Notes: generated by a model not told the origin, from the sequence alone. A stretch of 59,853 nt of DNA, filler included, from 6 parts of 6 records of this genome joined end to end with filler, not necessarily neighbours in it; one strand, 5' to 3'; counted from the whole stretch's first letter, positions 1-44,368 are shown. Program-made: numbers and translations.

Positions 1-1
1 A

Positions 2-367
2 ATGTATCAGATGCCGCCTATGCCGCCGCACCCACAGATGATGCAGGCTCCACAGATGCCTTTTATGGGACAACCGCAGCAGGGCGGAGCAAAAGCGGGC
101 GGGTGCTCACACGATCATAAGCAGGAAGACCCGTTTGGCGGTATGTTTGGGATGTTTGGTGAAATGGTTGATAACAACCCTAACCTCTCAGCTCTGAACA
201 AGGTAGTAGGTGCTACAAACAGCGATTTCCTGAAAGGGGCAATGCTTGGTGCGGGGCTTACACTTCTGCTCACAAGCGACGGCGTAAAAGAGATGCTCGC
301 AGGACTTTTTGCGGGAACAATGGATATGTTTGATAAAGATGAAGATACAGGAGAAGAAGATGAGTAA
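2..367 (+). CDS. Small GxxxG membrane protein of a ferrosome-like cluster (probably 5'-truncated); Pro/Gln/Met-rich N-terminus and acidic C-terminal tail
   Basis: Hydrophobic segment FLKGAMLGAGLTLLLT resembles that of ORF 710-1027; tail DKDEDTGEEDE; overlaps the next gene's start; begins at the contig edge. Confidence 0.75.
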   Translation: MYQMPPMPPHPQMMQAPQMPFMGQPQQGGAKAGGCSHDHKQEDPFGGMFGMFGEMVDNNPNLSALNKVVGATNSDFLKGAMLGAGLTLLLTSDGVKEMLAGLFAGTMDMFDKDEDTGEEDE

Positions 368-695
368 ACCAACAGGTGTTACAGGAACACACATTGCATC
401 AGGAGTAACAAGAGCGGCTCTCTTAGGTGGAGCGGCGGGTGCTGTTATCGGTGGAACTATTTCGGCTGCTAAACAGGCAAAAGATGTTAAAGATGAAAAA
501 ATTACAAAGAAAGAGGCTGTGGCAAATACAGCTAAAGATGCGGCTGGCTCAGGTATAGCTACGGCGGCTGGTGTTGCTGTTGCCGGTGCTGTCGGCGTTG
601 GCGGATTTGCTTCACTTTTAGTAATGGTCGCAGCAGCCACAGGCGCAAAATACCTTTGGGATGCATCAACATCCCCAGAAAAGAAAGAAGCTTAA
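360..695 (+). CDS. Gly/Ala-rich glycine-zipper membrane protein (ferrosome-cluster type)
   Basis: ATG at 360 after AGGAG (349-353); two hydrophobic GxxxG-rich segments (LLGGAAGAVIGG; AAGVAVAGAVGVGGFASLLV). Confidence 0.8.
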   Translation: MSKPTGVTGTHIASGVTRAALLGGAAGAVIGGTISAAKQAKDVKDEKITKKEAVANTAKDAAGSGIATAAGVAVAGAVGVGGFASLLVMVAAATGAKYLWDASTSPEKKEA

Positions 696-709
696 CAGGA
701 GAGAGAGTA

Positions 710-1027
710 ATGGATCACAAAAGTAATACAGAATATAACCACGACCAGAATCAATACTATTATGTACCTCAGCAGGCGTACTATCAGTACCCTCAATATC
801 AGCAGTACCCTCAGCAGACAAATGTTCAGCAGTGGTTCGACTATAAAAACCCTTCTTACATCAAGGGCGCAGTTGTCGGAGCGGCAGTGACACTTCTGCT
901 TACTAACCCGACAGTCAAGAAAGCTATTGTTAAAGGCGTAGTTGGCGTTTGGGGGACACTTCAGGGTGGTGTCGAAGAGCTTAAAGAGCAGATCAGAGAC
1001 GTACAGGCTGAGATGGGCGAAGAGTAA
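710..1027 (+). CDS. FezA/YtxH-like small membrane protein with a Tyr/Gln/Pro-rich N-terminus
   Basis: ATG at 710 after an AG-rich RBS; KGAVVGAAVTLLLT GxxxG helix followed by an amphipathic, coiled-coil-like EELKEQIRDVQAE. Confidence 0.8.
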   Translation: MDHKSNTEYNHDQNQYYYVPQQAYYQYPQYQQYPQQTNVQQWFDYKNPSYIKGAVVGAAVTLLLTNPTVKKAIVKGVVGVWGTLQGGVEELKEQIRDVQAEMGEE

Positions 1028-1029
1028 AC

Positions 1030-1254
1030 ATGGCGAAAGAGAAGAAAGATAAGAAAGATAAGTGGAGAGAATCCACACTGATACGCAAAAGGCGTGCAGT
1101 TAAGTATGGAATGACAGCGAGTATGGCGCTCTGCGTTTATACAGGGCTAAAGAAGGGGAAGGATGCAAAAAAACTGCATATAGCCTCCGGAATCGCCCTC
1201 ATGGGGCTGTCGTATTTTCATACACGTCTGTACCCGAAAAATCAGAGAAGCTGA
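1030..1254 (+). CDS. Small two-helix membrane protein with two His residues (LHIASGIALMGLSYFH)
   Basis: Starts 2 nt after the previous stop; basic N-terminus and two hydrophobic segments; lies directly upstream of the P1B ATPase. Confidence 0.75.
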   Translation: MAKEKKDKKDKWRESTLIRKRRAVKYGMTASMALCVYTGLKKGKDAKKLHIASGIALMGLSYFHTRLYPKNQRS

Positions 1255-1263
1255 GGTGCTCAG

Positions 1264-3381
1264 ATTTTTAACCGTAAATTTTCTACCGGACTGGAAAATG
1301 TAAGTATAGCTCATGAAATTGAGGGCAGGATAAGGCTGAGAGCTAAGGTTCTCGGCAATCCCGCCCTCGATATATCCACGGTGGAGGCTGGTATTGAGTC
1401 CATCGATGGTGTTGAGTCTGTGCGTATAAACCAGAAAGCTAATAATATGGTTGTGAAGTTCGATCCAGCCACAAAAGCTAAGGATGATGTCTTAAGTGCG
1501 CTTACAGCATTTAGTCATACAATCTTTTGTGCTGATGAGGAGCTGACAGGCTCACCTGATATGGTAAATGTCTACTGGGCTGGTACTATGTGGGTGGCGA
1601 AAATGTTTCTCCCTATGAGCCTTAAACCTGCGGCTACTATCACAGGTGCCGCTCCTGTTCTTCTGGAGGGTGTCGAAACCCTTGTTACAGAGGGGCTTAG
1701 GGTTGAGGTTCTGGATGCCACTGTTATCGCTATGCTAATCGCCAGAAAAGATTATTTTACTGCCGGCTCGCTCAACTTCCTTCTCACACTTGGGCACTAT
1801 CTTGAGCAGTCCACCGAGTATAAGTCAGACAAGATGCTGAAAAGTCTTATTAAACCGGACATTAAAGAAGTCTGGATAATGGACGGGAAGGCTGAGAAGA
1901 AGATATCTGTGGAGGAGCTTTGTGTCGGAGACCTCGTTGTAGTTGGTTCAGGTGAGATGATCCCTGTGGATGGTGTTCTTCATTCAGGCGAGGGGCTTAT
2001 CAATCAGGCGTCAATCACAGGCGAATCTCTGCCGGTTAATCCTGAAATTAATAGCCAGATATATTCCGGTACAGTTGTAGTGGAGGGTAGGCTTGTTGTA
2101 AAAGCTGAGAGCGTAGGCTCGGATACCACCACCGCAAGGATAGCTAAATTCATCAGTAATTCACTTAAAAACAGATCTAAAACCGAGACAAAAGCTTTTA
2201 ACATGGCGAACAAGATGGTTCCGGTTACTTTCGCAACGGGGCTTGCAACTCTGGCTCTGACAGGTGATTTCAGAAGGGCATCATCAGTCTTGTCAGTGGA
2301 TTATTCATGTGCGCTTCAGCTTGTAACTCCTACAGCGATTAAGGCGAGCATGTTTAAAGCCGCATCGGAAGGTGTTTTTATAAAAGGTGCTCAGGCTCTT
2401 GAAAACCTCTCAGAAGTTAATACCGTGATATTTGACAAGACAGGAACTCTTACCAAGGGCGCTCTGTCTGTTACCGAGATCGAAGCCTATAGCGGATTTT
2501 CACCGGAAGAGGTTTTGAGGATAGCGGCATCCGCAGAGGAGCACTACTCTCATCCTATCGCTTCCGCTGTTGTTTCTGAGGCTGAAAAGAGAGGTCTTGA
2601 GCTGGATGAGACGGGTGAGGTGGATTTCATCATTGCCCACGGTGTTTCTGCATATGTCGGAGAGCATAAGGTACTTGTGGGGAGCCATCATTTCATCGCA
2701 GAGGATGAAAAGATTATCTGCTGCTTTGCCGAAGAGAAGGCTCAGGAATTTCGTTCCACTGGTCAGTCAGTCCTTTATGTAGCCATCGACGGCGAGCTTT
2801 GCGGAATCATAGCCATGCGTGACATACTGCGTGAAGAGTCAGTAGAGACCATAGCGGAGCTTAAGAAGTGCGGGGTTGAGCGTGTAGTGATGCTGACTGG
2901 TGATCATAAGGATGCAGCACTTAACATAGCCTCTGAGCTTGGGATTGATGACGTGTATTATGAGCTTAAACCGGAAGATAAGGCAGATATTGTCAAAAAA
3001 CTTAAAGATGAAGGTTGTGTCAGTGCATTTGTCGGTGACGGTGTGAATGATGCTCCTGCACTGCTTAGTGCTGATGTGGGTATAAGCCTGCCCGAGGGGG
3101 CTGACCTTGCCAGAGAAACGGCGCAAGTGCTCCTTCTCCGTGAGGATCTGCGAGGTATTGCTCATGCTAAAAAGATAGCGGATGAGACGATGAAGGTTAT
3201 TAAACGGGTTTTCAAAGCGAATGTCGGCATAAATACGGCGACAGTTCTTATGTCTGTTATGGGCTTTCTCTCGCCGCTTCAGTCGGCACTGCTCCATAAC
3301 GGTACAACAGTATCAACACTTTTATACGCTTTGAGTTTATCTTCCAAAAATGATAAAGGGGTATTTGATGCAGAGACTTGA
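1264..3381 (+). CDS. fezB: P1B-6-type heavy-metal P-type ATPase, FezB-like (probable ATT start at 1264; the ORF track starts at GTG 1381)
   Basis: TGES, DKTGT and GDGVND motifs; TM metal-site DYSCA and C-terminal LHNGTT typical of P1B-6; N-terminal HMA-like region AHEIEGRIRLR lies in frame upstream of 1381. Confidence 0.85.
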   Translation: MFNRKFSTGLENVSIAHEIEGRIRLRAKVLGNPALDISTVEAGIESIDGVESVRINQKANNMVVKFDPATKAKDDVLSALTAFSHTIFCADEELTGSPDMVNVYWAGTMWVAKMFLPMSLKPAATITGAAPVLLEGVETLVTEGLRVEVLDATVIAMLIARKDYFTAGSLNFLLTLGHYLEQSTEYKSDKMLKSLIKPDIKEVWIMDGKAEKKISVEELCVGDLVVVGSGEMIPVDGVLHSGEGLINQASITGESLPVNPEINSQIYSGTVVVEGRLVVKAESVGSDTTTARIAKFISNSLKNRSKTETKAFNMANKMVPVTFATGLATLALTGDFRRASSVLSVDYSCALQLVTPTAIKASMFKAASEGVFIKGAQALENLSEVNTVIFDKTGTLTKGALSVTEIEAYSGFSPEEVLRIAASAEEHYSHPIASAVVSEAEKRGLELDETGEVDFIIAHGVSAYVGEHKVLVGSHHFIAEDEKIICCFAEEKAQEFRSTGQSVLYVAIDGELCGIIAMRDILREESVETIAELKKCGVERVVMLTGDHKDAALNIASELGIDDVYYELKPEDKADIVKKLKDEGCVSAFVGDGVNDAPALLSADVGISLPEGADLARETAQVLLLREDLRGIAHAKKIADETMKVIKRVFKANVGINTATVLMSVMGFLSPLQSALLHNGTTVSTLLYALSLSSKNDKGVFDAET

Positions 3382-4078
3382 TTTGGCAGACAGCGGCTGC
3401 TGTTATCGTATAGCAGAGATTAAAGATGAAAAACTCTCCATGAAATTAGCCTCCTATGGACTATTCATAAATAGTCTTATTACTAAGGTTGACCCTGAAT
3501 ATGCTCAGTTTGCCACGCTCAAAATTAGTACAAAAAGAGGCACTGCTTCTATACCGGGAAGTTTGGCTAAACATCTTTTAGTCCGCTCCGGCAGGGGTGC
3601 TGTCAAAAGTATTTACGAGCTTGAGGAAGGCAAGAGTGCAAATGTCACTGAGATAAACGGCTGCGAAAAGACTATTGCTAGGCTGAAACTGCTTGGAGTT
3701 GATAAGGGAGTCAGACTGAAACTGCTTCGAAGCCTGCCGCATATGGAATATGTTGTACTTGTTAACAACCGTACAAGGGTGAGGGTTTCTGAGGCTGTGG
3801 CAGCATCGATAATAGGTGAAAGCCTGAATATGCATAAACAGTTCTCATTTGCCAGAAAGGGGAGAAGCTTTACAGTTAAGTCGATTGTTGCCGGTGAAAA
3901 GATAAGTGCATACCTTGATAAAATCGGAATATCTGATGGTGTGGATATAACCTTAGAAGGGATTGAGCCTGGCAAAGATATACCTTTTGAGGATGACGGC
4001 ACAATTTCAATTTATGCTTTAGAGGGTTTTCATATGATGTTATCGGAAGCCTCAGCAGAAAGTATCATAGTAGTGTAA
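3368..4078 (+). CDS. Protein with three tandem FeoA (SH3-like) repeats
   Basis: ATG at 3368 overlaps the ATPase end; three segments of the FeoA pattern (KLASYGL, RLKLLGV, YLDKIGI). Confidence 0.7.
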   Translation: MQRLDLADSGCCYRIAEIKDEKLSMKLASYGLFINSLITKVDPEYAQFATLKISTKRGTASIPGSLAKHLLVRSGRGAVKSIYELEEGKSANVTEINGCEKTIARLKLLGVDKGVRLKLLRSLPHMEYVVLVNNRTRVRVSEAVAASIIGESLNMHKQFSFARKGRSFTVKSIVAGEKISAYLDKIGISDGVDITLEGIEPGKDIPFEDDGTISIYALEGFHMMLSEASAESIIVV

Positions 4079-4131
4079 AGAATTAAAAAAAATCGTATAC
4101 AATGTACAGAAAACACTTGCGAAAAACACGG

Positions 4132-4150
4132 GATAATGATATTCAATATC
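4132..4150. promoter_or_regulatory. Fur box-like operator (orphan, between convergent genes)
   Basis: GATAATGATATTCAATATC matches 17/19 of the canonical GATAATGATAATCATTATC; TTGCGA at 4117-4122 is a possible -35. Confidence 0.75.
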
Positions 4151-4523
4151 AACTACTCGGGGTGTGTTTTTATCGGGGGGCCCGAGCGGGGCTTATGCCA
4201 TAATAACTTGTAAAGTTATATCCTGTTTACTTGTCAACCCTAGTGCGCAAGAAGATATGGTTTGTCCCCGTCCCCCGGCCTTAACCCTTCTAAAGATATA
4301 TATTAGTTTTTGTAAAGCGTGCAATGGTTATTTCATAAAAAATTATCTAAATTTCTAACTCTGATTATTTAATATTGATAAGAGTAAGAGTCAGGTATGA
4401 AAGAAGAATACTTCTTTTATTGCATGGACATCTTCACTTTTTGAAAGATGTATGGTAAGAGGTCGCAACGGTATTTGGAGCTTTGAGTGCGGGGTCTGTA
4501 TTTTTTATTGGTTTAGAAGCTGT

Positions 4524-4736
4524 TTATTTATTACCGTTACAGCAATCTGATGCTTCATCTCTTTTGTGTTGTCCGCAGCATTCGTGGTCATCATCGCTTG
4601 TGCTTTGGCTCGAACAACATGCTGAGCCTTCTGATTCAGACCCGCAGCCGCATCCTTTCTTTTTGAAGATGAAATTAGCAAGGTAAAGTACGGCAATCAA
4701 TACAATAATAAAAACAATAAGAGAATCGGCATTCAT
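4524..4736 (-). CDS. FeoB-associated Cys-rich small membrane protein
   Basis: N-terminal TM helix then KKKGCGCG...CCS...HECCG...DCC; AAGGAG RBS; last gene of the feo operon. Confidence 0.8.
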   Translation of the reverse strand: MNADSLIVFIIVLIAVLYLANFIFKKKGCGCGSESEGSACCSSQSTSDDDHECCGQHKRDEASDCCNGNK

Positions 4737-4757
4737 TTTGTGTCTCCTTATAAGTGG

Positions 4758-4784
4758 GCGGACGGCAGTTTATCTACCGTCCGC
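4758..4784 (-). other. Intra-operon stem-loop
   Basis: GCGGACGG...CCGTCCGC inverted repeat between the DUF4198 gene and the Cys-rich gene; no U-tract on the coding strand. Confidence 0.5.
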
Positions 4785-4800
4785 AGATGAAAAAAGTTTC

Positions 4801-5595
4801 TTACTTCGCAGGCTTAGCCTGCACCCAGATAACTGCGTCCTGGGAAAGTTCTTTTCCTTTGTATTCTGTGTCAGGACCTGCACCGAGTGCTGCAAATCCC
4901 CACCAGCCTGCAAATGGTATAGCGAATGTGAACTCGCCGTCTTTGTTAGCTTTGATTCCCATTGTTACAAAAGAATCGTGTGGAGCTTCAACAAACGGCT
5001 TGTTGCCCATTTTGTTATTAGCCATGTCAACATCCCATCTGAGGTATTCAACTTCGATCTCAGCGTAAGGGACTGGTTTACCGTTACCCATAACTACACC
5101 TGTGAAGCTTCCGCCCTGCCAGATAGAGTATGGTTTTACAAGTGGAACGATCTCAGCTTTAAGACCGAGCTCTTGATCCCAATGTGTCGGAGCGCCTGCA
5201 ACGTTTGCGATAACTTTAGTGATCTGCTGGATGTAAGCATCTTCAGATTTTTCGAGGTATGGTTCTGGTGTGAGAACAAATGTGTAGTCGCCAAGTCCAC
5301 GGAACTGATACTTCGTTTCGTATCCTGTCGCAGAGTTGTGGTTCCCTTTGAATGTCATCTTTTTCAGAGTACCTAGAAGGTCTTTCTTCCCTTTTTTAGT
5401 AACAACGTAAAATTCTTCGGGCTGTCCCATCTCCATAGTGTGCTCGTCTGCAAATGGGTGATTGAAAACAAGTTTAATATCTTTTTTTCCGCCCTTGTTG
5501 AGTGCGCTCTCTTCCATGTAGAGCATCTGAAAGTGTGCCATAGCGCTTGTTGCGATGGCCATAATCATAAAACTGAGTACAATAATCTTTTTCAT
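4801..5595 (-). CDS. DUF4198 (NikM-like) periplasmic metal-binding protein
   Basis: Signal peptide ending AMA-HFQML (His at mature N-terminus); EIVPLVKPY, GKPVPYAEIEVEY and GWWGFAAL motifs. Confidence 0.85.
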   Translation of the reverse strand: MKKIIVLSFMIMAIATSAMAHFQMLYMEESALNKGGKKDIKLVFNHPFADEHTMEMGQPEEFYVVTKKGKKDLLGTLKKMTFKGNHNSATGYETKYQFRGLGDYTFVLTPEPYLEKSEDAYIQQITKVIANVAGAPTHWDQELGLKAEIVPLVKPYSIWQGGSFTGVVMGNGKPVPYAEIEVEYLRWDVDMANNKMGNKPFVEAPHDSFVTMGIKANKDGEFTFAIPFAGWWGFAALGAGPDTEYKGKELSQDAVIWVQAKPAK

Positions 5596-5618
5596 TTCCC
5601 TCTCCTTTAAACTATAAA

Positions 5619-5930
5619 TTATTCAGCGATTTCGCTACCTTTAACTTCTACTTTGTGTCCTTCGCCTGCATCGAAAACAACCTTGTATTTGCCTTCTGGC
5701 TTGTTATAGGTGAATTCAGAGTCTTCGCTCATCTTTCCGGACATAATTGTTTTGCCTGAAGATGAGATTACATGCATCTTTACTCCGCTTGCAGAAGATC
5801 CGTCAGAAAAGCCGCCTTCACATGTGACTGTTCCGTCTCCGTTATCAAAGCAAGACATAAGTGGTGTGTGTGCAAATGCGCCGGAAGCTGAAAGTGCTAC
5901 GACCATCGCTAATAAAACTAATTTCCTCAT
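5619..5930 (-). CDS. Small periplasmic protein of feoB-DUF4198 operons
   Basis: Signal peptide AFA-HTPLMSC; CEGGFSDGS and FDAGEGH motifs; start overlaps the feoB stop. Confidence 0.75.
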   Translation of the reverse strand: MRKLVLLAMVVALSASGAFAHTPLMSCFDNGDGTVTCEGGFSDGSSASGVKMHVISSSGKTIMSGKMSEDSEFTYNKPEGKYKVVFDAGEGHKVEVKGSEIAE

Positions 5931-8383
5931 ACTGTTCCTCCTGGTTTATTTTTTTCAAATCTTGTAAATCCGAGTGCAATTGTGATTGTGATCATAATTC
6001 CGTAGTAAATGTACATAGCCTGCATCCCATCCACCCCGAATCCGGAGGATATAGAGAAGACTGCTGCAGCTATGAAAGCTCCGAGAGCCATAGGGTAAAT
6101 TATTGAGAAGAGCATCCACTTGTATGAACCAGTTTGTACCTTCACCATCATCATAGATGCAATGCAAGGCGGGTAGAGAGTCATGAAAAGTATCATTGCA
6201 AGTGCGTGAAGCGGTGTTGTGCCGCCTTTCTGGTTTGACATGCTCGTTTCGAGAGAGACATTCTCCTCGTCGCCGTAGATAGCACCTAGTGTTGCAACCA
6301 TGCTCTCTTTAGCAGCAAAAGCACTGAGTATACCGACATTAACTTTCCAGTCGAAGCCAGCGTACTGCGTCACAGGCTCTATAAAACGCCCAGCCATGCC
6401 GAGGTAGCTGTTATCAAGCCTCTCTTTACGCATAAGGCGGTGAACCTTCTTTCTCGCTTTTGAAACTTTCCTGAGCGCTCTGTTCATCGTTTTCGCATCT
6501 TTGTCTTTGCCAGGTTTGATGAAGAGGAAGAAGAACTCATTTTTGTTTTGCATCTTTTCGTTAAATGACTTTAGTGCATCGCCTTTTTTTGTCATGGCGT
6601 TAGCTTTATACTGCTCATAGAAGTTGATCAGGCTCACTACCTGATCTTCAGACTGAACATGTTCAGCGTATTTGTTTTTATCCGTTTTCTTGTGAAATGT
6701 TGCAACAGCCTTATCCATCTGCGCTCTATAGCCGGCTTTTGACTCTTTTGGGAGGCCTGGAAACTGGAGAAGGACAAAAAGGATAACCGCCACAGCTGCG
6801 ACAATTGTTATAATCTTTTTTATATATAGCCAGATACGCTCGATGGTTCTGCTCAAAATCCCTCTTATCGTAGGGAGGTGATAAGCTGGCATCTCCATTA
6901 CAAAAGGAGTTGTCTCTTTATCTTTGAGAACAGTGACCGCAAGAAGCTTTGATATAATAACAGCCATCATCACGGTAACAGTCGATATGAAAAACATCGT
7001 GAAAGCTTTTGTCTGAGCAAAATATACATTCACCAAAAGGGTGTAAAACGGAATTTTTGCCAAGCAGTTCAAGAGCGGAACAATAAGAATCGTAGCTATC
7101 CTCGCCCTTTCATCTGAGATACCTTTTGTGGACATGATGCCAGGGACAGCGCACCCTCCAACGTATACACCACCTAAAACCATAGGAAGTGTTGATTGAC
7201 CGTGGAGCCCGTATCTTGCAAAGAGTTTATCAAGGATAAAAGCCATCCGAGGCATGTAGCCTACATCCTCGAGGAATGCTACCAGCGCAAATAATATGAA
7301 GAATATTGGAAGATAGTTAAGTAGTGCGTTAACACTGTCGATAACCCAGAGTCCCAGTGCTCTTGAGTAGGGTATGTCAACAAGTCCGCTCTGGGGGAGG
7401 ACGTTACTGGCGAAGTTTTTAATAGAGGCAAGATAAGGCCAAGTATAGTTAGTCAGCTTATAACCTTGTACGATAGATAGCTCGTAAAGCAGATAGATGA
7501 TTAGCATCATTATCGCCGGACCAAGTATCTTGTGGCATATTAGCGAATCTGCAATATCAGACATGGAACGCTTATACTCTTTGGTTCTCTTTACGCACTT
7601 CTGGAAAATTTTCTTTGACTCTGCATGTCTTATAGAAGCTATGTAGTCGAGAGGCATTACCCCCTCATTGAGTCTGAACTCCTCTATCGCCTTCTCTCGC
7701 ATAATATCAAAATCTGCAAAGTTACTTATATTTGACTGGAGTTTCTCTACAACATCCATGTCATTCTCAAGAGCTTTAATCGCATACCATCTCTCAGACA
7801 CTGCAAGCTGTTCAGAGTTATCTATTAAGAATTTTTCGAGTTCAGCTATCGGACTTTCGAGTTTAGGGTATTCTATTTTGAATTCATTGGTGTTCGACGG
7901 TTCAGGCTTAATTATTTTTTTAAGATCAGATATGCCGTGCTTTTTAGAGCCGACAGTTTTCGCAACGGGCACACCGAGTATTTCGCTAAGCTTATCTTCG
8001 TCGATGCCCATGCCTCTCTGGTCGGCAACATCAGCCATGTTAAGCGCCATGACCAGCGGCAGTTTTGTTTCTAAGAGCTGAAATGTGAGGTAGAGGTGTC
8101 TTGCGAGGTTTGAAGCATCAAGGATATTAACTAGAATATCAGGCTTGTCAGTAAGTATATAATCACGTGCCACCCTCTCTTCAAGAGAGAAGGACGTGAG
8201 GCTATAAGTCCCGGGCAGATCAACAACATTGACTTCTGTTCCCTCGTGGGAAAAGGTTCCGTACTTCTTATCTACAGTTACTCCGGGGTAGTTTGCAATG
8301 TGCTGTCTTGCGCCTGTAAGCATGTTGAAGATGGTAGATTTTCCACAGTTCGGCTGTCCTGCAAGGGCTACTGAGATACTCAT
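5927..8383 (-). CDS. feoB: Ferrous iron transporter FeoB
   Basis: G1 GQPNCGKS, NYPGVTV, DLPGTYSL and NMAD GTPase motifs; gate motifs EDVGYMPR, PFVMEMPAY and LYPPC. Confidence 0.97.
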   Translation of the reverse strand: MSISVALAGQPNCGKSTIFNMLTGARQHIANYPGVTVDKKYGTFSHEGTEVNVVDLPGTYSLTSFSLEERVARDYILTDKPDILVNILDASNLARHLYLTFQLLETKLPLVMALNMADVADQRGMGIDEDKLSEILGVPVAKTVGSKKHGISDLKKIIKPEPSNTNEFKIEYPKLESPIAELEKFLIDNSEQLAVSERWYAIKALENDMDVVEKLQSNISNFADFDIMREKAIEEFRLNEGVMPLDYIASIRHAESKKIFQKCVKRTKEYKRSMSDIADSLICHKILGPAIMMLIIYLLYELSIVQGYKLTNYTWPYLASIKNFASNVLPQSGLVDIPYSRALGLWVIDSVNALLNYLPIFFILFALVAFLEDVGYMPRMAFILDKLFARYGLHGQSTLPMVLGGVYVGGCAVPGIMSTKGISDERARIATILIVPLLNCLAKIPFYTLLVNVYFAQTKAFTMFFISTVTVMMAVIISKLLAVTVLKDKETTPFVMEMPAYHLPTIRGILSRTIERIWLYIKKIITIVAAVAVILFVLLQFPGLPKESKAGYRAQMDKAVATFHKKTDKNKYAEHVQSEDQVVSLINFYEQYKANAMTKKGDALKSFNEKMQNKNEFFFLFIKPGKDKDAKTMNRALRKVSKARKKVHRLMRKERLDNSYLGMAGRFIEPVTQYAGFDWKVNVGILSAFAAKESMVATLGAIYGDEENVSLETSMSNQKGGTTPLHALAMILFMTLYPPCIASMMMVKVQTGSYKWMLFSIIYPMALGAFIAAAVFSISSGFGVDGMQAMYIYYGIMITITIALGFTRFEKNKPGGTV

Positions 8384-8604
8384 TTCGCTTCCACGTCGAT
8401 CAAGGCTGCTTCTGTTTTCCTGATAGTCATATAGAAACTACCTAGCTTTAGCTCCATAGGGTCTTTCAGCGGAGCGTTTCGGACAACTGTGACCTCAACA
8501 TCAGGCACAAGTCCCATGTCCATAAATCTCTGCTTAAGTGCACCCTCAGCTTTTACTAGTTTCAACATACAACTGCACCCTGGTTTAACTTCATTTAATG
8601 TCAT
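8380..8604 (-). CDS. feoA: Ferrous iron transport protein FeoA
   Basis: 74 aa; RFMDMGLVP...APLKDP...IRKTEA; stop overlaps the feoB start. Confidence 0.95.
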   Translation of the reverse strand: MTLNEVKPGCSCMLKLVKAEGALKQRFMDMGLVPDVEVTVVRNAPLKDPMELKLGSFYMTIRKTEAALIDVEAK

Positions 8605-8629
8605 AATTCCATCTCTTTTAAAATAATGC

Positions 8630-8676
8630 TGTAATGATATTCATTCTCAATATCATTAAGGTTTATCCCTTGTCAA
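8630..8676 (-). promoter_or_regulatory. Fur box-like palindrome overlapping the feoA promoter
   Basis: TAATGATATT-N7-AATATCATTA inverted repeat (8632-8658), 15/19 to the Fur consensus at 8630-8648; TTGACA on the minus strand at 8676-8671. Confidence 0.75.
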
Positions 8677-8834
8677 GAAGTTTATTCGCATATTGTATAC
8701 AATTCTCCATATTTTGAATTTTATAAATATTCAAATATTACAATATTTTGTATCTGGTAATTTTATATGTATGTAGGAGGCTTGATAATTTCCAACTTAT
8801 GTGGGGATATATATATAAGTGTACAAAAATATGC

Positions 8835-8880
8835 TTGACTTTGAGGTTCTATGTTGATATTGATTCTGATAATCTGTATC
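8835..8880 (+). promoter_or_regulatory. Promoter with overlapping Fur box-like sites for the ABC operon
   Basis: TTGACT at 8835; GATATTGATTCTGATAATC (8856-8874, 14/19) and GATTCTGATAATCTGTATC (8862-8880, 15/19) offset by 6 bp. Confidence 0.6.
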
Positions 8881-8909
8881 AATAGTTTTGTTTTTTAATT
8901 GGTGGTTAA

Positions 8910-9794
8910 ATGGAATATCATATTGAAGTGAATGATCTGTACCACAAGTATGGTAATAGGGTTATTTACGAAAATCTTAACTTCAAAGTACCTAAAGGGA
9001 AAGTTTTCGGTCTGCTCGGTAAAAACGGAGTGGGGAAAACCACTCTGATCAAAATCCTCATGGGTTTTTTGCGTCCTGCTGGTGGCTCATGCCGCATTAT
9101 GGGGGACGATTCCCATAATTTATCTCCCGCTACGAGGAGGAGGGTTGGATTGCTTTTTGAGGGGCACTTGTCGTATGAATTTATGACTATTGAAAGTATA
9201 GAAAAATTCTTTGCACCTTTTTATCCGAAATGGAAGAAAGAGCTCTATTACGGACTTACAGATAAACTTAAACTTCCGAAAACCCATAAAATTGGAAATA
9301 TGTCCGAGGGTCAGAGGTCGCAGGTTGTCCTCGGGCTTATCATGGCTCAACAGCCGGAAGTTATGATCCTCGACGACTACACAATGGGGCTCGATGCCGG
9401 ATACCGGTCTCTGTTTCTCGATTATCTGAAGGAATATTTAAAGGACGGTGATATCACTGTTCTTGTTACTTCTCATATAGTTCAGGATTTAGAGGAATTT
9501 GTTGATGATGTCGTATTTCTTGAGAGGGGAGGGCTAGCCACCCAGACAAAGCTCGACGAATTCCTGCAGAATTTCAGGCAGTATTCCATTCCCAGAGGTT
9601 GCGCTTTAAAGGCTGAGAAGGGCGGCATAATAAAGAATATAGAGGATTCAGGTGATAAAAGGCTCGTTTATTCTTTCTCCGGTTTACACGAAATGCGAGA
9701 TTATTTATCAGATTTTGGTGTTGATAGTAATTATGTAACAGAAATCCCGATGAGTTTTGAAGAAGCTTTTATCGGCTTCACAGGCAGGTATTAA
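8910..9794 (+). CDS. ABC transporter ATP-binding protein
   Basis: Walker A GKNGVGKT; signature-like MSEGQ; Walker B ILDD; switch TSH. Confidence 0.92.
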   Translation: MEYHIEVNDLYHKYGNRVIYENLNFKVPKGKVFGLLGKNGVGKTTLIKILMGFLRPAGGSCRIMGDDSHNLSPATRRRVGLLFEGHLSYEFMTIESIEKFFAPFYPKWKKELYYGLTDKLKLPKTHKIGNMSEGQRSQVVLGLIMAQQPEVMILDDYTMGLDAGYRSLFLDYLKEYLKDGDITVLVTSHIVQDLEEFVDDVVFLERGGLATQTKLDEFLQNFRQYSIPRGCALKAEKGGIIKNIEDSGDKRLVYSFSGLHEMRDYLSDFGVDSNYVTEIPMSFEEAFIGFTGRY

Positions 9795-9796
9795 TT

Positions 9797-10465
9797 ATGC
9801 TGATATCAATACTTTTTAAAGAAGTTATGAAGCTAAGGATATTTTGGTTTGCAGCTTTGTTTTTCAACCTGAGCATTGTTATTTATTTATATATTTCAAT
9901 GACTAAGCTGTTTCGTATGGATCATCCGGAGATAGTCTGGTACTACGCGCTTCACCTTGGTGAGATGTTTTTTATAGATTTCAAATATGTGCCTCTTTTC
10001 ACGGGGATATTCTTTGCGGCGTCACAGTTTCTGCCGGAGATGCGTAACCAGAGGTTTAGGATATCTTTGCATCTCCCGATTAAGTCACACATGGTTGTTT
10101 TCGGGCACCTTTTTGTCGGCGGCTGTGCAATCTTATCAATCTTCTTCTTAGATATTATAGGTTTATATACTATGACAGCTCAGGTTTTCCCGTATGAATA
10201 TGTCACAAGGGTGATAGTCACCGTGCTCCCGTGGTGCATGGGCGGAATTGCGGCATATTTGGGCACAACACTTGTCATGCTTGAGCCCGCATGGAAAGTT
10301 CGTTTTATTAATTTCATCATCTCTGCGGGGCTGATGTCGCTATTTTTTACGCCTGCTGATTCCGGGGCTTACGCTTATATGTTTCCAACTCTCGGTTTGG
10401 TTTTACTATTTTTTACAATCACATTGCTGATTCCTGCTCACAGGTTCAGATACAGGAGGGTGTGA
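9797..10465 (+). CDS. ABC-2 type membrane subunit
   Basis: About six hydrophobic helices; QFLPEMRNQRFRISLHLP motif; coupled to the ATPase gene. Confidence 0.8.
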   Translation: MLISILFKEVMKLRIFWFAALFFNLSIVIYLYISMTKLFRMDHPEIVWYYALHLGEMFFIDFKYVPLFTGIFFAASQFLPEMRNQRFRISLHLPIKSHMVVFGHLFVGGCAILSIFFLDIIGLYTMTAQVFPYEYVTRVIVTVLPWCMGGIAAYLGTTLVMLEPAWKVRFINFIISAGLMSLFFTPADSGAYAYMFPTLGLVLLFFTITLLIPAHRFRYRRV

Positions 10466-10466
10466 G

Positions 10467-11738
10467 ATGATTATGGTAGCGAGATACGCTCTTATTCTCC
10501 TTGCTGTGATGATCATGGCTGTTTTTATACCTATGCTTTCAGATATGGCATTCGGCGAAAGACCTATGAAGACTCAGCTCTTTTACAGCCCTGTGAAAGA
10601 GGACTTCGTCTGGCGTGACAAGATGCCTGAGGGGATGGATACCAACCCACAGAAGAAACATCACGTTCAGTTTCTCATTACAGATAAAAATGGTGATAAG
10701 TATACAAGGCAGAGCTTTGAAAAACTGCTTCCGTTCATCTATTACAAGAATATGGAGCTCTGGGGGCTGTTGCCTTTAGAGCTTAAAGGGCGCACGTTTG
10801 ATAAGGCTGCAATAAAGGAGAGCCGTCAGGTTGTGGAGCTTAAGCCGGAAAACCTACCAAAAAATACTACCGGTGACGATATCTACCCTTTGATAGAGTC
10901 AGTTCCAGACGGAGTGCGGCTTGTCCTTCCTGATGATAGATTCAGGATAAATGACAGGATAGAATTTCTGAACGCTGATACTAACTCAGTGGATGAAGAG
11001 CTTTCTGGTAAGTTTACCGATGCGCTTCTCAGTGCAGGATTTATTTTCCCGGGTGAGTTTATAGGCGGTAAATCAAGCATACTTAAACCGTTTGACGAGG
11101 GAGTTTTCTTAAAGGATAAAAGTGGTGCTGTCTTTCACCTGAAGAGAGTGAGAGGTAATCCGCTTGTTGTTAATACCGGAGTAACCCCAGACGGCGGGGT
11201 GAGGTTTATTAAGGTTTCAGAAAACAAGCGAAAGGAATTTTACGGGGTGCTGCTTAGCAATGTCGGTAACCTGTACCTGCTTGGATATAAAGACTATAAT
11301 CTTATCCCGCTGTCTTTAAAAGGGTATGATCCTGATACGATGGATTTCAAAATGATATTTAACCCTTTGTATCGGACGGCAACATACTCAGATAATGACG
11401 TTATCAGAGCTGTAGTGATGGATGAGGGATATCAGGAGATTGACTATATGGAGCATGTGATGCCGGGAACTCAGCCTACTGAAATGCAGAAGGTTGTTAG
11501 CTCTATGCTCCCTTACAGGGTAGTGCTTAAGAGTGAAAACAGCGATTTTCTCAAGCTTAATTTCACTGATTTCGGCATGTCATCTCTGATATCAGCTCTT
11601 TTATGCATAGCTGTTTATATCGGTTTTGCACTTAGGAGAAAGGAGAGCTCAAAGTTTGTTCTCGCAGATGCCGGGCTAATACTTTTCACAGGAGTATACG
11701 GATTAGCGGCGGTTTTTCTGATACCATACGAAAAATAA
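10467..11738 (+). CDS. DUF4857-like membrane-anchored protein with a large extracytoplasmic domain
   Basis: N-terminal TM, YSPV...F and FEKLLPFIYY motifs, KPFDEG, two C-terminal TMs. Confidence 0.7.
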   Translation: MIMVARYALILLAVMIMAVFIPMLSDMAFGERPMKTQLFYSPVKEDFVWRDKMPEGMDTNPQKKHHVQFLITDKNGDKYTRQSFEKLLPFIYYKNMELWGLLPLELKGRTFDKAAIKESRQVVELKPENLPKNTTGDDIYPLIESVPDGVRLVLPDDRFRINDRIEFLNADTNSVDEELSGKFTDALLSAGFIFPGEFIGGKSSILKPFDEGVFLKDKSGAVFHLKRVRGNPLVVNTGVTPDGGVRFIKVSENKRKEFYGVLLSNVGNLYLLGYKDYNLIPLSLKGYDPDTMDFKMIFNPLYRTATYSDNDVIRAVVMDEGYQEIDYMEHVMPGTQPTEMQKVVSSMLPYRVVLKSENSDFLKLNFTDFGMSSLISALLCIAVYIGFALRRKESSKFVLADAGLILFTGVYGLAAVFLIPYEK

Positions 11739-11932
11739 TTCCATAACTTTTTACACTTGCCCCCACGGTGTACAGAGAGCTTGGAAACTTAGATATCTCT
11801 TGTAGTATTAACTTAAATGTTATGATACTTCTAAACATATGTGCATAATTTGACAGAGAATTAATATAAACTTGCCATTTTAAGAAAAATTATTGTTTAT
11901 CCTTATCAATATTATTATTGTGAGGTATAACT

Positions 11933-13180
11933 ATGCGCATTGTTAAAAGGTTGACAACATTCGCAGGTATGGCAGCAATCACACTTGCTGTCGCTGCCTG
12001 TAGCACTGCTACTACAGCTACAAAGCCAGACAGTACGTCTGCTCAGGTCATGAAAAAAACTCTCGAATTTTCATCAGTAAAAGCTCCGGAAACAGATGCT
12101 GAAAAGCGTGCTATTTTCGCTTCGAGCACTGCTAAAATCAACGGTAAAGAGTTCAAAATCGGCTACAACACTATCCTTAGAAGTGGCGAGAGCCCTATGG
12201 GTGATCCTAAAAACGGAACTTTCGGTCTTATGTTTGACAAAGACGGAAATGTAATCATGAATGAAGACGGCTCAAAGTTCATCTCTGTGAGCAACGACTT
12301 CGCTTCAATCCTTACGGGTAAAGACGGCAATCTTTACATGGTTTCTCATTTTGAGAACTCACCTGCTGCGATCTACATCACTGCTCTTGAGCAGGATGCT
12401 CAAACAGGAAAGCTTACTGCTGTTAAAACACGTAACATAGACTACTCCAACGTTAAAGGCGGCTGGGTACACTGTGCGGGCAGTGTTACACCTTGGGGAA
12501 CACACCTCGGTTCAGAGGAGTACGAGCCGGACGCTAGAAAAGTTGATTCTGATACAGGTCACTTCAACGATAACTACAAATTTGCTCAGGCAAAATACTT
12601 CGGTCTTAACTCTAAAGATAAAACTTCCGGTGCATTCGATGAAATGAATGTTTACGATTACGGCTGGCAGATAGAAATTTCTGTTGATAACTTCAAAAAA
12701 GTCAACACTGTAAAGCACTACACAATGGGACGTGTTGCACACGAGCTCGCTTATGTAATGCCTAATAAAAAGACTGCTTACATCTCTGACGATGGAACAA
12801 ACGTTGGTCTCTTCCGTTTCGAGGCTGATAAAGCTGGAGACCTTAGCTCAGGTACACTTTATGTAGCTAAATGGAACCAGACAAGAGCTGCAGGCGGCGG
12901 TCAGGCTGATCTCGGCTGGATAAGCCTCGGTCACGCAACAGACGCTGACATAAAGCACTACATCGATAAGAAAATCACTTTTGACGATATCTTTGAATCT
13001 GTTGAGCCGGAAGGTAATATGTGCCGCTACAGCAGCTTCACAATGATCAACACAACAACGGGTAAAGAGTGCCTTAAGCTTAAACCGGGAATGGCTAAAG
13101 CCGCTTCCAGACTTGAGACACGCCGTTACGCTGCTATGATGGGCGGTACGACAGAGTTCAGAAAGATGGAAGGTATCACA
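11933..13180 (+). CDS. phoX: PhoX (DUF839) alkaline phosphatase, lipoprotein, 3'-truncated
   Basis: Lipobox AVAAC; HCAGSVTPWGTHLGSEEY, MGRVAHE, AYISDDG and KMEG motifs. Confidence 0.85.
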
Positions 13181-13280
13181 NNNNNNNNNNNNNNNNNNNN
13201 NNNNNNNNNNNNNNNNNNNNNNNNTTAATTAATTAANNNNNNNNNNNNNNNNNNNNNNNNNNNNNNNNNNNNNNNNNNNN
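13181..13280. other. Artificial contig linker
   Basis: 44 N + TTAATTAATTAA (stops in all six frames) + 44 N; base composition changes abruptly across it. Confidence 0.99.
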
Positions 13281-14006
13281 ATCCTGCTCACCGACGACCG
13301 CGAAGTCTATGAGCGCGCGCTGCTCTACAGTCACTACGCGCGGCATGGTGAAATCACCTCGTCAGATCTGAAGCGGTTTGCGGGAATTCCCTGCGGGGGA
13401 TTCAAACACCGCATGCACCAGGTCAGTGCCGCCTTTGGGCTCGTCCAGTTGGAGCTGTTCCCGCAACAGATGGCCGAGATCGACAAAGCGATGAATCATT
13501 TTTGCGACCTGCTCGATGACGTCCCCGGGATCAAGCCGATCCGACCCGAGCCCTCCAGCAACACGACCAAAGGTGGCTGGTACTATCCGCATTTCCATTA
13601 CGCCCGCGAGGAGTTGGGCGGGCTGTCGCTTTCGCGGTTCGCCGAGGCGGTGCGGGCAGAGGGCTCGGTCTGCAACCCAGGCTGCAACAAGCCACTGCAC
13701 CATCATCCGCTATTCACCGAGATGGATGTCTACGGACATGGCCGGCCCACGCGCACTGCCCATCTCGATCCAGACGCGCGCGTCGAATCCTATGTCCAGT
13801 CGCTCCCTGTTGCCGAGGGGATTATGCAGCGCGTGTTTGAAGTGCCATGGTTCAAACACAACCGGCATGAGATCATCGCCCAGCATGCCAACGCGTACAA
13901 GAAAGTCGTGGCCGGGCACGAAGCGCTGCTGGCCGACGACCCGGGCGACCCGACGGACGTTGGCGGCTACAGCAGTTTCTTCACCGACCGCAGGGACAAG
14001 AAATAG
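13281..14006 (+). CDS. DegT/DnrJ/EryC1/StrS family PLP aminotransferase, 5'-truncated
   Basis: Open frame from the contig edge: ILLTDDREVYERA...GFKHRMHQVSAAFGLVQL...FAEAVRAEG...PLHHHPLF. Confidence 0.8.
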   Translation: MLLTDDREVYERALLYSHYARHGEITSSDLKRFAGIPCGGFKHRMHQVSAAFGLVQLELFPQQMAEIDKAMNHFCDLLDDVPGIKPIRPEPSSNTTKGGWYYPHFHYAREELGGLSLSRFAEAVRAEGSVCNPGCNKPLHHHPLFTEMDVYGHGRPTRTAHLDPDARVESYVQSLPVAEGIMQRVFEVPWFKHNRHEIIAQHANAYKKVVAGHEALLADDPGDPTDVGGYSSFFTDRRDKK

Positions 14007-14010
14007 AGCC

Positions 14011-16461
14011 CTAGTAGGACGAGGCCATTTCCGGCGGCGTGTACCACAGTGAGCGCCAGTACTCGCGGTCGGTGCGATAGCCGTCGATCGCTGCTACGTC
14101 CGCGATGTCGAGCGGCAGGACGCCATAACGTTTCATCTCGCGCACGTAGGGAGCCGGCGGCACGAAGCCCGGCATGTCGAAGCGCTTGATTTCTGTGAGA
14201 TGCACTTGGCCGGCGCGGCACATCGCGAGGATCTTCTGATAGTCTGGATCTTCCTTGTTGGTAAAAACCTCACCTTCACACGTCCCGTACCCACCGGCCT
14301 CGGTGGCCAGCGGCGCCAGCAGCACCAGTGATTTCTCGGGCCGTGTCAGATTAAACACGAGATGGCGACTCAACCGCAGGCGGGGATCGTCCGGCGCCGG
14401 TCTCCAGAACGACACCTCGCGCTCGTCGGAGAGGTTCCGCGGCAATATCGTATCGCCCGCATGACAGCCCGCGCAGCGCCGCGCGATTGCCTCGGAGGCC
14501 AGTTTCGTCTCGGGCCATTCCCAATCGGTATTGACCTGGCGGTTCTCGTAGTAGCCGCCGATCATGCCATTGCCCAGTGCGGCGTAGGTCCCAGGATAGG
14601 GGGCGCCCGATTCGATCCAGAAGCGGATCATCTTGATCTCATGCGGCGAAAGCTTTACGTCGTGATGGTCGCCCGCGATTTTCTTCATCAGCGGACTGGC
14701 GACGGCCCCGATGGAGCGGGGAGCCAGATTGCTCTTCGGGTCGTTGCGCCCGTCGACGAATTCCTTGCGATACGTCAGGGTGTAATAGCTGTGACTGAAC
14801 ATCGGGCCGTGGTCACCGGCCAGGACCACACCGCCTTTGCGTTTGTCATAGTCGTGACATTCGACGCAGTGCTTGTCCAGGATGGGTTGAATGTCGCGGG
14901 GGAAATCGAACACGTCGGGGATCTCGGCTATCGGCATGACCTCGCTGGGGTCGCGCTCCAACGCGAGCAGATTGCCCGTGGTGCGGCTGGCCGGCGTGTT
15001 GGTCCGCTGTTCGTGGCAGCCTACGCAACTGGTCGTCTCTCCAGGCATCACCGTCAGGAAGCTCTGCATTCGCTTGACCGAGTCGTCGTTCTCGTCCAGC
15101 GCCACGAAGAAGAAACTACGCAGGGCCGGCAGTTCCATGTAGGCCGATCCATCGGGCTCGACCGGGACCGTGCCGACCACGCGCTCCAGCGTGAACGTTC
15201 CGCCGAAACTGATCGGGTCCATGCCGCCGGTATAGTGGATGGGCATCGGCAGGCTCTCCAGCACGAGCAGCTTCTTGATATCGCCCGGTTCGATGCCCTC
15301 CATGCGGCGCCCGCTGTAGATGTCGCTTAAGACGAGTCGGCCGGTGGTCTCGCGCGGTGCGGTTCGTGGTGGGATAATCCTCTCTGTCGGTCTGGGCCGG
15401 AGCGGTCGCGGCTCATGGAGTGTCACTTCCCCCCGGGCCAGTTCCGCCGGTAAGCGGTAGATCGGCCAGGACTGGCCTTGCACGCTCATCAGGATGAGGC
15501 GGTCTTTCTGCGCGGCCAGGATGTAGTCCTTGGACAACGGATACGGATCGCGAAAATCGTCGGTCTTACCGATCTGACGGGCAGCCGCCGGCTCGTCCGG
15601 GCCCAGCTTCGGACTGACAATCGTCACGGCGCCGACATGCTCGCGCCGGCCATGCCCGGGCGAGAAGATCGCTACAATGTCCTTCGTGCCGGGGATGGGC
15701 TTGGCATCGATCATGAGTATTCCGGGATGCATGTTCCCGTAGAACACCATTTGCCCCGTCCCGTCGGGATTCATCGTCCAGAGGTGGTGATAGTGCACCT
15801 GACTGCGGTCGATGTATTCCCAACGTTGATAGAGAATGCGCCCATCGGGCAGAGGCCACGGCGTGTTTTCATGCTCGTTGTTGCTGGAGAGCGGGCGCAG
15901 GTTGCCTCCATCCGCGTCGCACCGGTACAGCACCGCGACCTGGGTCAGCCAGCAGTTGACCCAGCGATTGCACCGGTCCGAACAGAATACGATCCCGCCG
16001 TCCGGCAAGTAGGCCGGTTCGATATCGTTGTGTGGCCCGTCGGTTAGTTGCCGCAGCCCGGTGCCGTCGGTGTTGATTTCGTACAGATGGAAATATTCGG
16101 TTCCACTCTTGCGGTAGGAGAAGACAATCTTGCGTCCATTGTAGTGGACCTGAGGGTCCCGCACGGTGCCTTCCGGCGCGTCGATCATCACGGTGACGGC
16201 GCCGGTGCGCACGTTGAGTTTGCAGAGCTGCCCGCGAGCCCGGTAGGCCTTCCGCGCCACACCTTCAGCGTAGTAGCCAAAATTGGCGTACCAATGCCCG
16301 TCCAGCCCTTCCTGTCGGCAGGCGAAGACGATCTCTTCGGTCTCGCCCATGGCTTCGAGCAGGACTTGCCCCGCCTGTCGCGCCGACGCGGTGCTGAGCA
16401 TCAGGGTGCAGATCAGGATGAGATACCTATACTTCACACGGACAGACGGGACGCGTTTCAC
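14011..16461 (-). CDS. Secreted beta-propeller/multiheme protein related to hydrazine synthase alpha subunit (HzsA-like family)
   Basis: Signal peptide; WD40/TolB-like repeats (LYEINTDGTGLRQLT, LPDGRILYQRWEY); GTVPVEPDGSA; three CxxCH (CVGCH, CVECH, CAGCH). Confidence 0.8.
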   Translation of the reverse strand: MKRVPSVRVKYRYLILICTLMLSTASARQAGQVLLEAMGETEEIVFACRQEGLDGHWYANFGYYAEGVARKAYRARGQLCKLNVRTGAVTVMIDAPEGTVRDPQVHYNGRKIVFSYRKSGTEYFHLYEINTDGTGLRQLTDGPHNDIEPAYLPDGGIVFCSDRCNRWVNCWLTQVAVLYRCDADGGNLRPLSSNNEHENTPWPLPDGRILYQRWEYIDRSQVHYHHLWTMNPDGTGQMVFYGNMHPGILMIDAKPIPGTKDIVAIFSPGHGRREHVGAVTIVSPKLGPDEPAAARQIGKTDDFRDPYPLSKDYILAAQKDRLILMSVQGQSWPIYRLPAELARGEVTLHEPRPLRPRPTERIIPPRTAPRETTGRLVLSDIYSGRRMEGIEPGDIKKLLVLESLPMPIHYTGGMDPISFGGTFTLERVVGTVPVEPDGSAYMELPALRSFFFVALDENDDSVKRMQSFLTVMPGETTSCVGCHEQRTNTPASRTTGNLLALERDPSEVMPIAEIPDVFDFPRDIQPILDKHCVECHDYDKRKGGVVLAGDHGPMFSHSYYTLTYRKEFVDGRNDPKSNLAPRSIGAVASPLMKKIAGDHHDVKLSPHEIKMIRFWIESGAPYPGTYAALGNGMIGGYYENRQVNTDWEWPETKLASEAIARRCAGCHAGDTILPRNLSDEREVSFWRPAPDDPRLRLSRHLVFNLTRPEKSLVLLAPLATEAGGYGTCEGEVFTNKEDPDYQKILAMCRAGQVHLTEIKRFDMPGFVPPAPYVREMKRYGVLPLDIADVAAIDGYRTDREYWRSLWYTPPEMASSY

Positions 16462-28756: not shown

Positions 28757-28856
28757 NNNNNNNNNNNNNNNNNNNNNNNNNNNNNNNNNNNNNNNNNNNN
28801 TTAATTAATTAANNNNNNNNNNNNNNNNNNNNNNNNNNNNNNNNNNNNNNNNNNNN
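28757..28856. other. Artificial contig linker
   Basis: N44-TTAATTAATTAA-N44. Confidence 0.99.
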
Positions 28857-37024: not shown

Positions 37025-37124
37025 NNNNNNNNNNNNNNNNNNNNNNNNNNNNNNNNNNNNNNNNNNNNTTAATTAATTAANNNNNNNNNNNNNNNNNNNN
37101 NNNNNNNNNNNNNNNNNNNNNNNN
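37025..37124. other. Artificial contig linker
   Basis: N44-TTAATTAATTAA-N44. Confidence 0.99.
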
Positions 37125-40889: not shown

Positions 40890-40897
40890 ATGAAATT

Positions 40898-44268: not shown

Positions 44269-44368
44269 NNNNNNNNNNNNNNNNNNNNNNNNNNNNNNNN
44301 NNNNNNNNNNNNTTAATTAATTAANNNNNNNNNNNNNNNNNNNNNNNNNNNNNNNNNNNNNNNNNNNN
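44269..44368. other. Artificial contig linker
   Basis: N44-TTAATTAATTAA-N44. Confidence 0.99.

Follow-up and report, generated by a model that had tools for sequence, protein, structure and literature searches.

A probable large-type fez (ferrosome) operon, cut at its 5' end, beside feoAB on a contig from an uncultured anaerobe

The window, as the whole 59,853-nucleotide (nt) stretch of DNA analyzed here is called, opens with a compact series of genes resembling the fez clusters that encode the iron-storage organelles known as ferrosomes. Six plus-strand genes, nearly gapless and with all six reading frames intact, occupy positions 1-4078, and encode in order a GxxxG protein, a two-helix membrane protein of the MamC family, a second GxxxG protein, a small two-helix protein with two invariant histidines, a P1B ATPase and a protein with three FeoA repeats. 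With a probability of roughly 80%, we take this region for a "large-type" fez operon of an uncultured anaerobe, of which the 3' two-thirds are present. The window is a concatenation of six unrelated contigs, and only the first of these, positions 1-13180, goes with the fez genes.

The genes are closely packed. Open reading frame (ORF) 1 (2-367; 121 amino acids (aa) seen) is overlapped for 8 nt by ORF2 (360-695; 111 aa); 14 nt then separate ORF2 from ORF3 (710-1027; 105 aa), and 2 nt separate ORF3 from ORF4 (1030-1254; 74 aa). The ATPase gene ends at 3381, and its end is overlapped by the start of the triple-FeoA gene, which runs to 4078 from either ATG 3350 or ATG 3368 and encodes 236-242 aa. 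GxxxG motifs are present in ORF1 (GAMLG), ORF2 (several) and ORF3 (GAVVG), and absent from ORF4. An earlier note on this DNA, made from the sequence alone, had described a tight operon of four small membrane proteins, three with GxxxG, a P1B ATPase with DYSCA, HNGT and an Arg-rich GRIRLR segment, a triple-FeoA gene, a missing 5' part, and feoAB and Fur-like boxes as neighbors; all of these are borne out by the results given here. By position ORF1, ORF2 and ORF3 are FezE-like, FezF-like and FezG-like, respectively, where the FezD/E/F/G naming would follow from gene order and from descriptions in a preprint, not from sequence comparison with the named proteins. According to that preprint, fez clusters are necessary for ferrosomes in Desulfovibrio magneticus, Shewanella putrefaciens and Rhodopseudomonas palustris and sufficient in E. 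coli, and FezH, a second ATPase, occurs in the larger clusters along with GxxxG proteins, a DUF4405 protein and a FeoA-domain protein (Grant and Komeili preprint, bioRxiv 10.1101/2020.01.10.902569).

The pump gene (1264-3381) encodes a FezB-type P1B-6 ATPase of 705 aa if read from ATT 1264, or of 666 aa if read from GTG 1381. Pfam recognizes E1-E2_ATPase, Hydrolase (HAD) and an N-terminal HMA_2 domain, the NCBIfam heavy-metal P1B ATPase model TIGR01525 scores 491.6 bits (cut-off 346), and the catalytic motifs DKTGT, TGES and GDGVNDAP are intact. The sequence DYSCA lies at residues 346-350 in the putative fourth transmembrane helix (TM4) and HNGTT at 678-682 in the putative TM6; among 23 aligned homologues D346, Y347, S348, C349, H678, N679 and T682 are invariant. 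The GRIRLR segment falls within the HMA_2 match (E 1.4e-8). The preprint takes D[Y/F]SCA plus HNxxT, the latter in the last transmembrane helix, to define the P1B-6 group that includes FezB, and reports an N-terminal RxR or RxRxR in most FezB proteins as a feature that is not FezB-specific (bioRxiv 10.1101/2020.01.10.902569). An Arg-rich, HMA_2-type N-terminus is in fact described there for non-Fez P1B pumps such as CtpC, and this would suit a quite different explanation, in which the ATPase is a metal exporter of the cell membrane, of the CtpC-like or PfeT-like detoxification or metallation kind, with the small proteins serving as chaperones or assembly factors, and there is no organelle. One homologue (P0093) is annotated at its source as "manganese/zinc-transporting P-type ATPase C", and the sequence carries no localization evidence. 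What tells against the exporter is that both the DYSCA/HNxxT motifs and the clade of the pump match FezB, not the CPC/CPH/CPD pumps.

The clade was defined with a set of 118 ATPase frames (520 aa or longer; 115 distinct) from the window and 111 loci (designated L below), for which the outgroup pumps were a mixed P1B sample from an alignment scan using generic P-type motifs and are not nearest relatives; a single-protein scan of genome contigs for relatives of the ATPase found none. D[YF]xC together with HNxxT occurs in 35 of the 115 distinct pumps, every one of them with an Arg-rich N-terminus. Ten others combine CPCAT with an HxxH-type last helix and are Arg-rich too, and the remainder carry CPC, CPH, CPD, CPG or other motifs. 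A FastTree phylogeny of 110 rows, five rows shorter than 600 aa having been dropped, places the 35 FezB-type rows on one side of a branch with Shimodaira-Hasegawa (SH)-like support of 95, and the window ATPase is inside this group. Nine CPCAT rows, here called "FezH-type", constitute a neighboring group (support 100), while the other 65 rows stand apart and comprise 64 CPC/CPH/CPD/CPG pumps and one without such a motif. An IQ-TREE analysis of a chosen 45-row subset gave an SH-like approximate likelihood-ratio test (SH-aLRT) value of 100 for 18 FezB-type rows. Named members of the FezB-type clade, at 35-40% identity, come from Rhodobacter capsulatus, Amorphus, Dorea, Flavonifractor, Collinsella and Mailhella. 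To judge from its sequence, then, the window ATPase belongs to the clade bearing the published FezB (P1B-6) motifs; it groups with all other motif-bearing pumps and not with other P1B pumps, in a clade that is itself motif-defined, and the proposed fez-type identity of the cluster stands.

Gene context also separates the two kinds of pump. Iterated searches of all loci compared 45 FezB-type loci with 66 that have other P1B pumps, and the small families occur at the former alone: the ORF1/ORF3 family at 27 of 45, the ORF2 family at 17, the ORF4 family at 16 and the triple-FeoA family, after FezB, at 18, with 0/66 in each case for the other P1B loci. All four small families are present together in 11 loci, nine of which have the triple-FeoA family as well. 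Since GxxxG, MamC-family and FeoA genes are fez components in the preprint, their absence from the 66 other loci further disfavors the exporter, which we consider unlikely.

Gene order is conserved too, at 9-11 metagenome loci. The window order of ORF1, ORF2, ORF3, ORF4 and FezB is repeated in L081, L082, L085/L086, L097, L098, L099 and L100, and in all seven same-order loci that reach that far (L085 is cut) a CPCAT-type, Arg-rich second ATPase gene lies 5' of ORF1; this ATPase fits the description of FezH in the preprint. A small HMA_2-like gene is found between the FezH-type gene and ORF1 in L081, L082 and L086. The full order is seen in L081, which has FezH-type, HMA_2, GxxxG, MamC-like, GxxxG, two-His, FezB and triple-FeoA genes and, directly after the last of these, a Fur-family gene; most of it is kept in other loci. 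Outside the same-order loci, the trio of GxxxG, MamC-like and GxxxG genes lies directly 5' of the FezB-type gene of Rhodobacter capsulatus (L003), in agreement with what the preprint says of FezE, FezF (two TM) and FezG, and an ORF3 homologue has the same position in the metagenome-assembled genome (MAG) of L001. The recurring order from the FezH-type gene to the triple-FeoA gene offers a defined module to express and dissect. An "expanded gene set" had been put forward for the window cluster in the earlier note; the set is indeed present, but it equals the larger fez cluster type already in the Grant and Komeili preprint and so is no novelty, and the locus is an ordinary new example of a described type.

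The start of the pump gene is unusual. The frame is open from 1255, with the stop at 3381, and no ATG, GTG or TTG occurs between the ORF4 stop codon (1252-1254) and GTG 1381, which is residue 43. This would be expected of a decaying or non-expressed remnant in which the ATPase had lost its start codon. The remnant explanation has to contend with six intact frames, and with conservation at the protein level of the 39 codons ahead of GTG 1381, which encode the start of HMA_2 including GRIRLR; homology to full-length relatives begins near 1264. There is also a strong Shine-Dalgarno sequence, GAGGTG, at 1253-1258, 5 nt before ATT 1264 and within a small 5-bp hairpin (1251-1263). Relatives of the ATPase at 94% and 85% identity are likewise called short at the N-terminus (662 and 685 aa), which suggests a conserved unusual start. 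We judge the chance of a remnant to be very slight, and ATT 1264 is, on these sequence features, most likely the start codon of the pump. In other relatives the start is TTG (L081) or ATG (L082). A fusion of ORF4 with the pump by read-through of the TGA codon was also considered and discarded, since ORF4 and the ATPase share a frame in the window and in L081 but do not in L082.

ORF1 and ORF3 are paralogues, with a BLASTP match (E 2e-7) across the GxxxG helix. Homologues of ORF1 in nine loci are 232-459 aa long and consist of long tandem repeats, which are lineage-specific and rich in Pro, Gln, Met, Gly and Tyr, then a short stretch containing Cys and His, and then the same conserved C-terminal GxxxG module. 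Repeat-bearing examples are found at 2-120 in the window, 8198-8974 in L081, 5121-6245 in L086 and 2653-4041 in L097. The contig begins 1 nt ahead of the ORF1 ATG, inside Pro/Gln/Met-rich repeat sequence. Because the homologues are longer and the window copy begins inside the repeats at the contig end, ORF1 is 5'-cut, and the relatives have extra genes upstream; repeat arrays are typical assembly break points. ORF3 has a disordered Tyr/Gln-rich N-terminus, and its AlphaFold2 (AF2) model, with a predicted local-distance difference test score (pLDDT) of 75.5, shows this disordered segment followed by a 17-residue hydrophobic helix with the GxxxG motif (49-65) and a second helix (67-103). ORF3 belongs to a large family (374 representative clusters at E<=1e-3) for which Pfam offers no firm home; matches are weak only, to DUF5132 in 7 of 44 members and to YtxH in 4 of 44.

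ORF2 ties this cluster to a protein family known from magnetosomes. The NCBIfam MamC model (NF038051) matches ORF2 at E 9e-18, with 64.3-64.6 bits against a 100-bit equivalog cut-off, and it is matched at E<=1e-3 by 19 of 20 members of the ORF2 family. PF26373 (named MamC, Pfam 38.1) is assigned by precomputed annotation to all seven homologues of ORF2 obtained by word search. As a control, 151 genomes from the order to which a Magnetovibrio MAG belongs were searched, and 16 had MamC above the cut-off (117-150 bits); a profile of the ORF2 family from fez clusters matched all six bona fide MamC proteins that were fetched (E 1.5e-22 to 1.8e-17). Two of the alignments were inspected, and they span 93-94 residues, with both helices, the loop and a C-terminal KY-WD segment. 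On these matches, ORF2 counts as a true MamC homologue. It is nevertheless not the magnetosome MamC. Its score of 64 bits lies below the equivalog cut-off, and it resides in a fez operon, not in a magnetosome island; no magnetosome genes were seen on the locus contig (1-13180), and searches of the L001, L003, L013 and L022 genomes yielded no MamC.

That the two-helix Fez protein belongs to the MamC family connects components of ferrosomes and magnetosomes. A more ambitious proposal is that the fez two-helix protein and MamC are one family within an ancestral membrane-protein toolkit shared by the two organelles, that MamC was recruited from the more widespread ferrosome system, and that the long Pro/Gln/Met-rich repeats of ORF1-type proteins serve as a disordered matrix, which would organize the iron mineral or the vesicle. 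We hold this as a tentative idea, rather to be doubted than accepted. The homology between ORF2 and MamC is plain from the alignments; the direction of recruitment and a mineral-facing role are speculative. In the examined part of the literature that mentions both, no link between ferrosomes and MamC was found.

Two components remain, ORF4 and the triple-FeoA protein. Among 12 aligned members of the ORF4 family, H50, H64, K25 and G54 are invariant, and the two histidines are 14 residues apart in the second helix. ORF4 scores 15.6 bits (E 0.023) with Pfam DUF4405 (PF14358), below the gathering score of 26.7, and eight of the 12 family members match this model weakly, the best at E 0.0057 and all below gathering, such that ORF4 may be called only weakly DUF4405-like. 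In the triple-FeoA protein, Pfam FeoA (PF04023) scores 65.3 bits over the whole (cut-off 23), and every third, scanned alone, matches independently (E 9.5e-4, 2e-8 and 2.1e-4; 19.6, 34.6 and 21.7 bits).

The cluster can be set beside systems already described. With the large fez clusters of Grant and Komeili, the window shares the FezB motifs, the Arg-rich N-terminus, GxxxG proteins, a DUF4405-like and a FeoA-domain protein, and the association with feoAB and Fur; the FezH-type Arg-rich ATPase of these clusters, with its different metal-site motifs, is found upstream in close relatives of the window. The window copy differs from them by its 5' truncation and by the triple repeat of its FeoA protein. 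Shewanella putrefaciens CN-32 and Rhodopseudomonas palustris CGA009 have a six-gene fez operon (FezD, E, F, G, B, C), described in the preprint as holding two GxxxG proteins, a two-TM protein and FezB; the window has a corresponding order of GxxxG, two-helix, GxxxG and pump genes. It lacks FezC (HMA plus two TM) after the pump, and adds the two-His protein before the pump and the triple-FeoA protein after it. The fezABC cluster of Desulfovibrio magneticus resembles the window in its pump signature and in having a small hydrophobic partner with GxxxG, but it consists of three genes only, against at least six in the window type and eight or more in complete relatives.

By analogy with the studied fez systems, and with the summary given in a 2026 review, the most likely function of the cluster is the loading of vesicles with Fe(II). 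In such a scheme, the adjacent feoAB operon with its Fur-like boxes would supply Fe(II), and the FezB-type P1B-6 ATPase would pump it, at the expense of ATP, from the cytoplasm into small membrane vesicles, for storage there in the form of an iron-phosphate mineral. Both GxxxG proteins (ORF1 and ORF3), along with the MamC-family hairpin of ORF2, would be situated in the vesicle membrane, which they would shape or organize, and they may face the mineral. ORF4, with its two histidines, and the triple-FeoA protein could help to handle metal or provide a link between the pump and iron traffic of the Feo type. The Fe(II) substrate, the vesicle localization, the formation of granules and the role of each small protein are all to be understood here as predictions.

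Several points weigh against the assignment to a functional large-type fez operon. The window operon is incomplete, lacking a promoter, the FezH-type gene and the HMA_2 gene, and the pump is without a canonical start codon, so that an unusual start would be needed for its expression. The small families are missing from many of the 45 FezB-type loci, partly as a result of short contigs, and in the loci of gut Firmicutes and of the Collinsella type the iterated searches detected none of them. We know of no test of granule formation for the FezH-bearing large cluster type. The pump clade is defined by motifs and by named relatives, and the trees do not include FezB of D. magneticus, S. putrefaciens, R. 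palustris or C. difficile. Membrane topology is a further point. The legend to Fig. 1 in the preprint gives FezB six helices (bioRxiv 10.1101/2020.01.10.902569), a topology not clearly reproduced in the AF2 model of the window ATPase (pLDDT 80), which has four helices before the actuator domain (101-115, 121-142, 147-160 and 164-196) and four more after it; Kyte-Doolittle scans gave no settled helix count.

The genes downstream of the cluster also speak of iron. Facing the fez genes is a minus-strand feo operon, in which FeoA (8380-8604; 74 aa; Pfam FeoA, E 1e-18) is followed by FeoB (5927-8383; 818 aa). The latter scores 482.8 bits with TIGR00437 (cut-off 315) and has the Pfam domains FeoB_N, Gate, FeoB_C and FeoB_Cyto. 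Searches for a Fur-like box, taken as a 7-1-7 motif and tested against 100 shuffles, found nine in the window where 1.99 were expected, and none of the 100 shuffles reached nine; seven of the nine lie within 1-13180. The fez and feo operons converge, and in the gap that separates them two overlapping boxes at 4131-4151 have 2 and 3 mismatches to the 7-1-7 motif, and with 2 mismatches to the 19-mer Fur consensus (0.01 expected) this is the best Fur-like box of the window. A box with 2 mismatches at 8635-8649 sits on a promoter-like site 5' of feoA (TTGACA-16-GATATT, minus strand, 8676-8649). Two further boxes at 8855-8881 are 5' of the next operon. Among the relatives' loci, a Fur-like box lies 5' of the FezH-type gene in one of ten (L086), and there is therefore no general support for Fur control of the fez operon.

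This setting bears on the choice of metal. The compartment might instead store another metal (e.g., Mn or Zn) or a mixed mineral, as the literature covered holds no measurement of substrate specificity for a P1B-6 pump, and the 2026 review raises ferrosome-like structures for other metals as a question. Yet the context is iron-specific: the triple-FeoA gene within the operon, feoAB next to it, the excess of Fur-like boxes, and in L081 the Fur gene after the FeoA gene. Storage of another metal seems decidedly improbable to us.

The 445-nt gap between the fez and feo operons (4079-4523) has no ORF that matches a family; in L081 the Fur gene stands after the FeoA gene. It is possible that this gap holds an iron-regulated small RNA or reflects a lost gene; no Rfam family was found in 1-13180 at E<=1. 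The last gene of the feo operon (4524-4736, minus strand) encodes a small Cys-rich membrane protein of 70 aa that has no Pfam or NCBIfam match at E<=0.01, and that may resemble the "FeoB-associated Cys-rich" proteins. Between it and feoB, also on the minus strand, are genes for a DUF4198 protein (4801-5595; 264 aa; Pfam E 3e-52) and a small NikL-like protein (5619-5930; 103 aa; NCBIfam NF058648, E 1.6e-14, below cut-off). A NikL-like and DUF4198 pair is also situated 3' of feoB in L090 (2508-3783), where feoAB adjoins a fez-type cluster, and a DUF4198 fragment is found at the start of L097, 5' of the FezH-type gene. Beyond feoA, an operon at 8910-13180 encodes an ABC ATPase, a 222-aa protein of no assigned family, a DUF4857 protein and, incomplete because the contig ends there, a PhoX-like protein; it may be a further iron-regulated transport system.

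As for the host, the earlier note had guessed at Deferribacterales, and the evidence is divided. The closest FezB relatives overall are 94, 89 and 85% identical, and the nearest named ones are Geovibrio sp. (partial, 71%), Seleniivibrio woodruffii (67%) and Denitrovibrio acetiphilus (64%); for ORF2 the nearest named relative is a Seleniivibrio sp. (58%). These matches favor the Deferribacterota, whereas FeoB points elsewhere, as its relatives at 89-72% identity are followed by a drop to about 54%, where the named matches are Desulfobacterota. The 89% FeoB relative, a 93% ORF2 relative and the 94% FezB relative are encoded on the same contig. The 13-kb locus contig has no marker genes. From these similarities a Deferribacterota origin is plausible for the fez genes and is not established for the organism. 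Ferrosomes and Deferribacter or Deferribacterota were not found together in the literature searched, a search that did not extend to the species tables of the preprint. The locus adds an incomplete fez example from an uncultured lineage, with a pump closest to that of the Deferribacterota.

Ten runs of 44 N in the window make up five spacers of the form N44-TTAATTAATTAA-N44, artificial junctions at 13181-13280 (which closes the fez contig), 28757-28856, 37025-37124, 44269-44368 and 51703-51802. The six pieces have guanine-plus-cytosine fractions of roughly 0.44, 0.61, 0.52, 0.45, 0.52 and 0.62, in order, those past the first contig ranging from 0.45 to 0.63, and truncated gene fragments lie at the junctions (e.g., 13413-14006 and 36399-36959). 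Because the window consists of separate contigs, genes on either side of a spacer are not in one neighborhood, and sequence past 13180 is therefore unusable for inference about the host. On another of the contigs, a TerB_N/TerB_C protein, a BrxC/BrxD-family ATPase and a DEAD-box helicase are encoded in a row (37340-43060); the module looks like a defense type and has no relation to the fez cluster. A further, high-GC contig encodes an 816-aa protein (14011-16461) that has a PD40 repeat and whose middle domain is of the hydrazine-synthase-alpha type.

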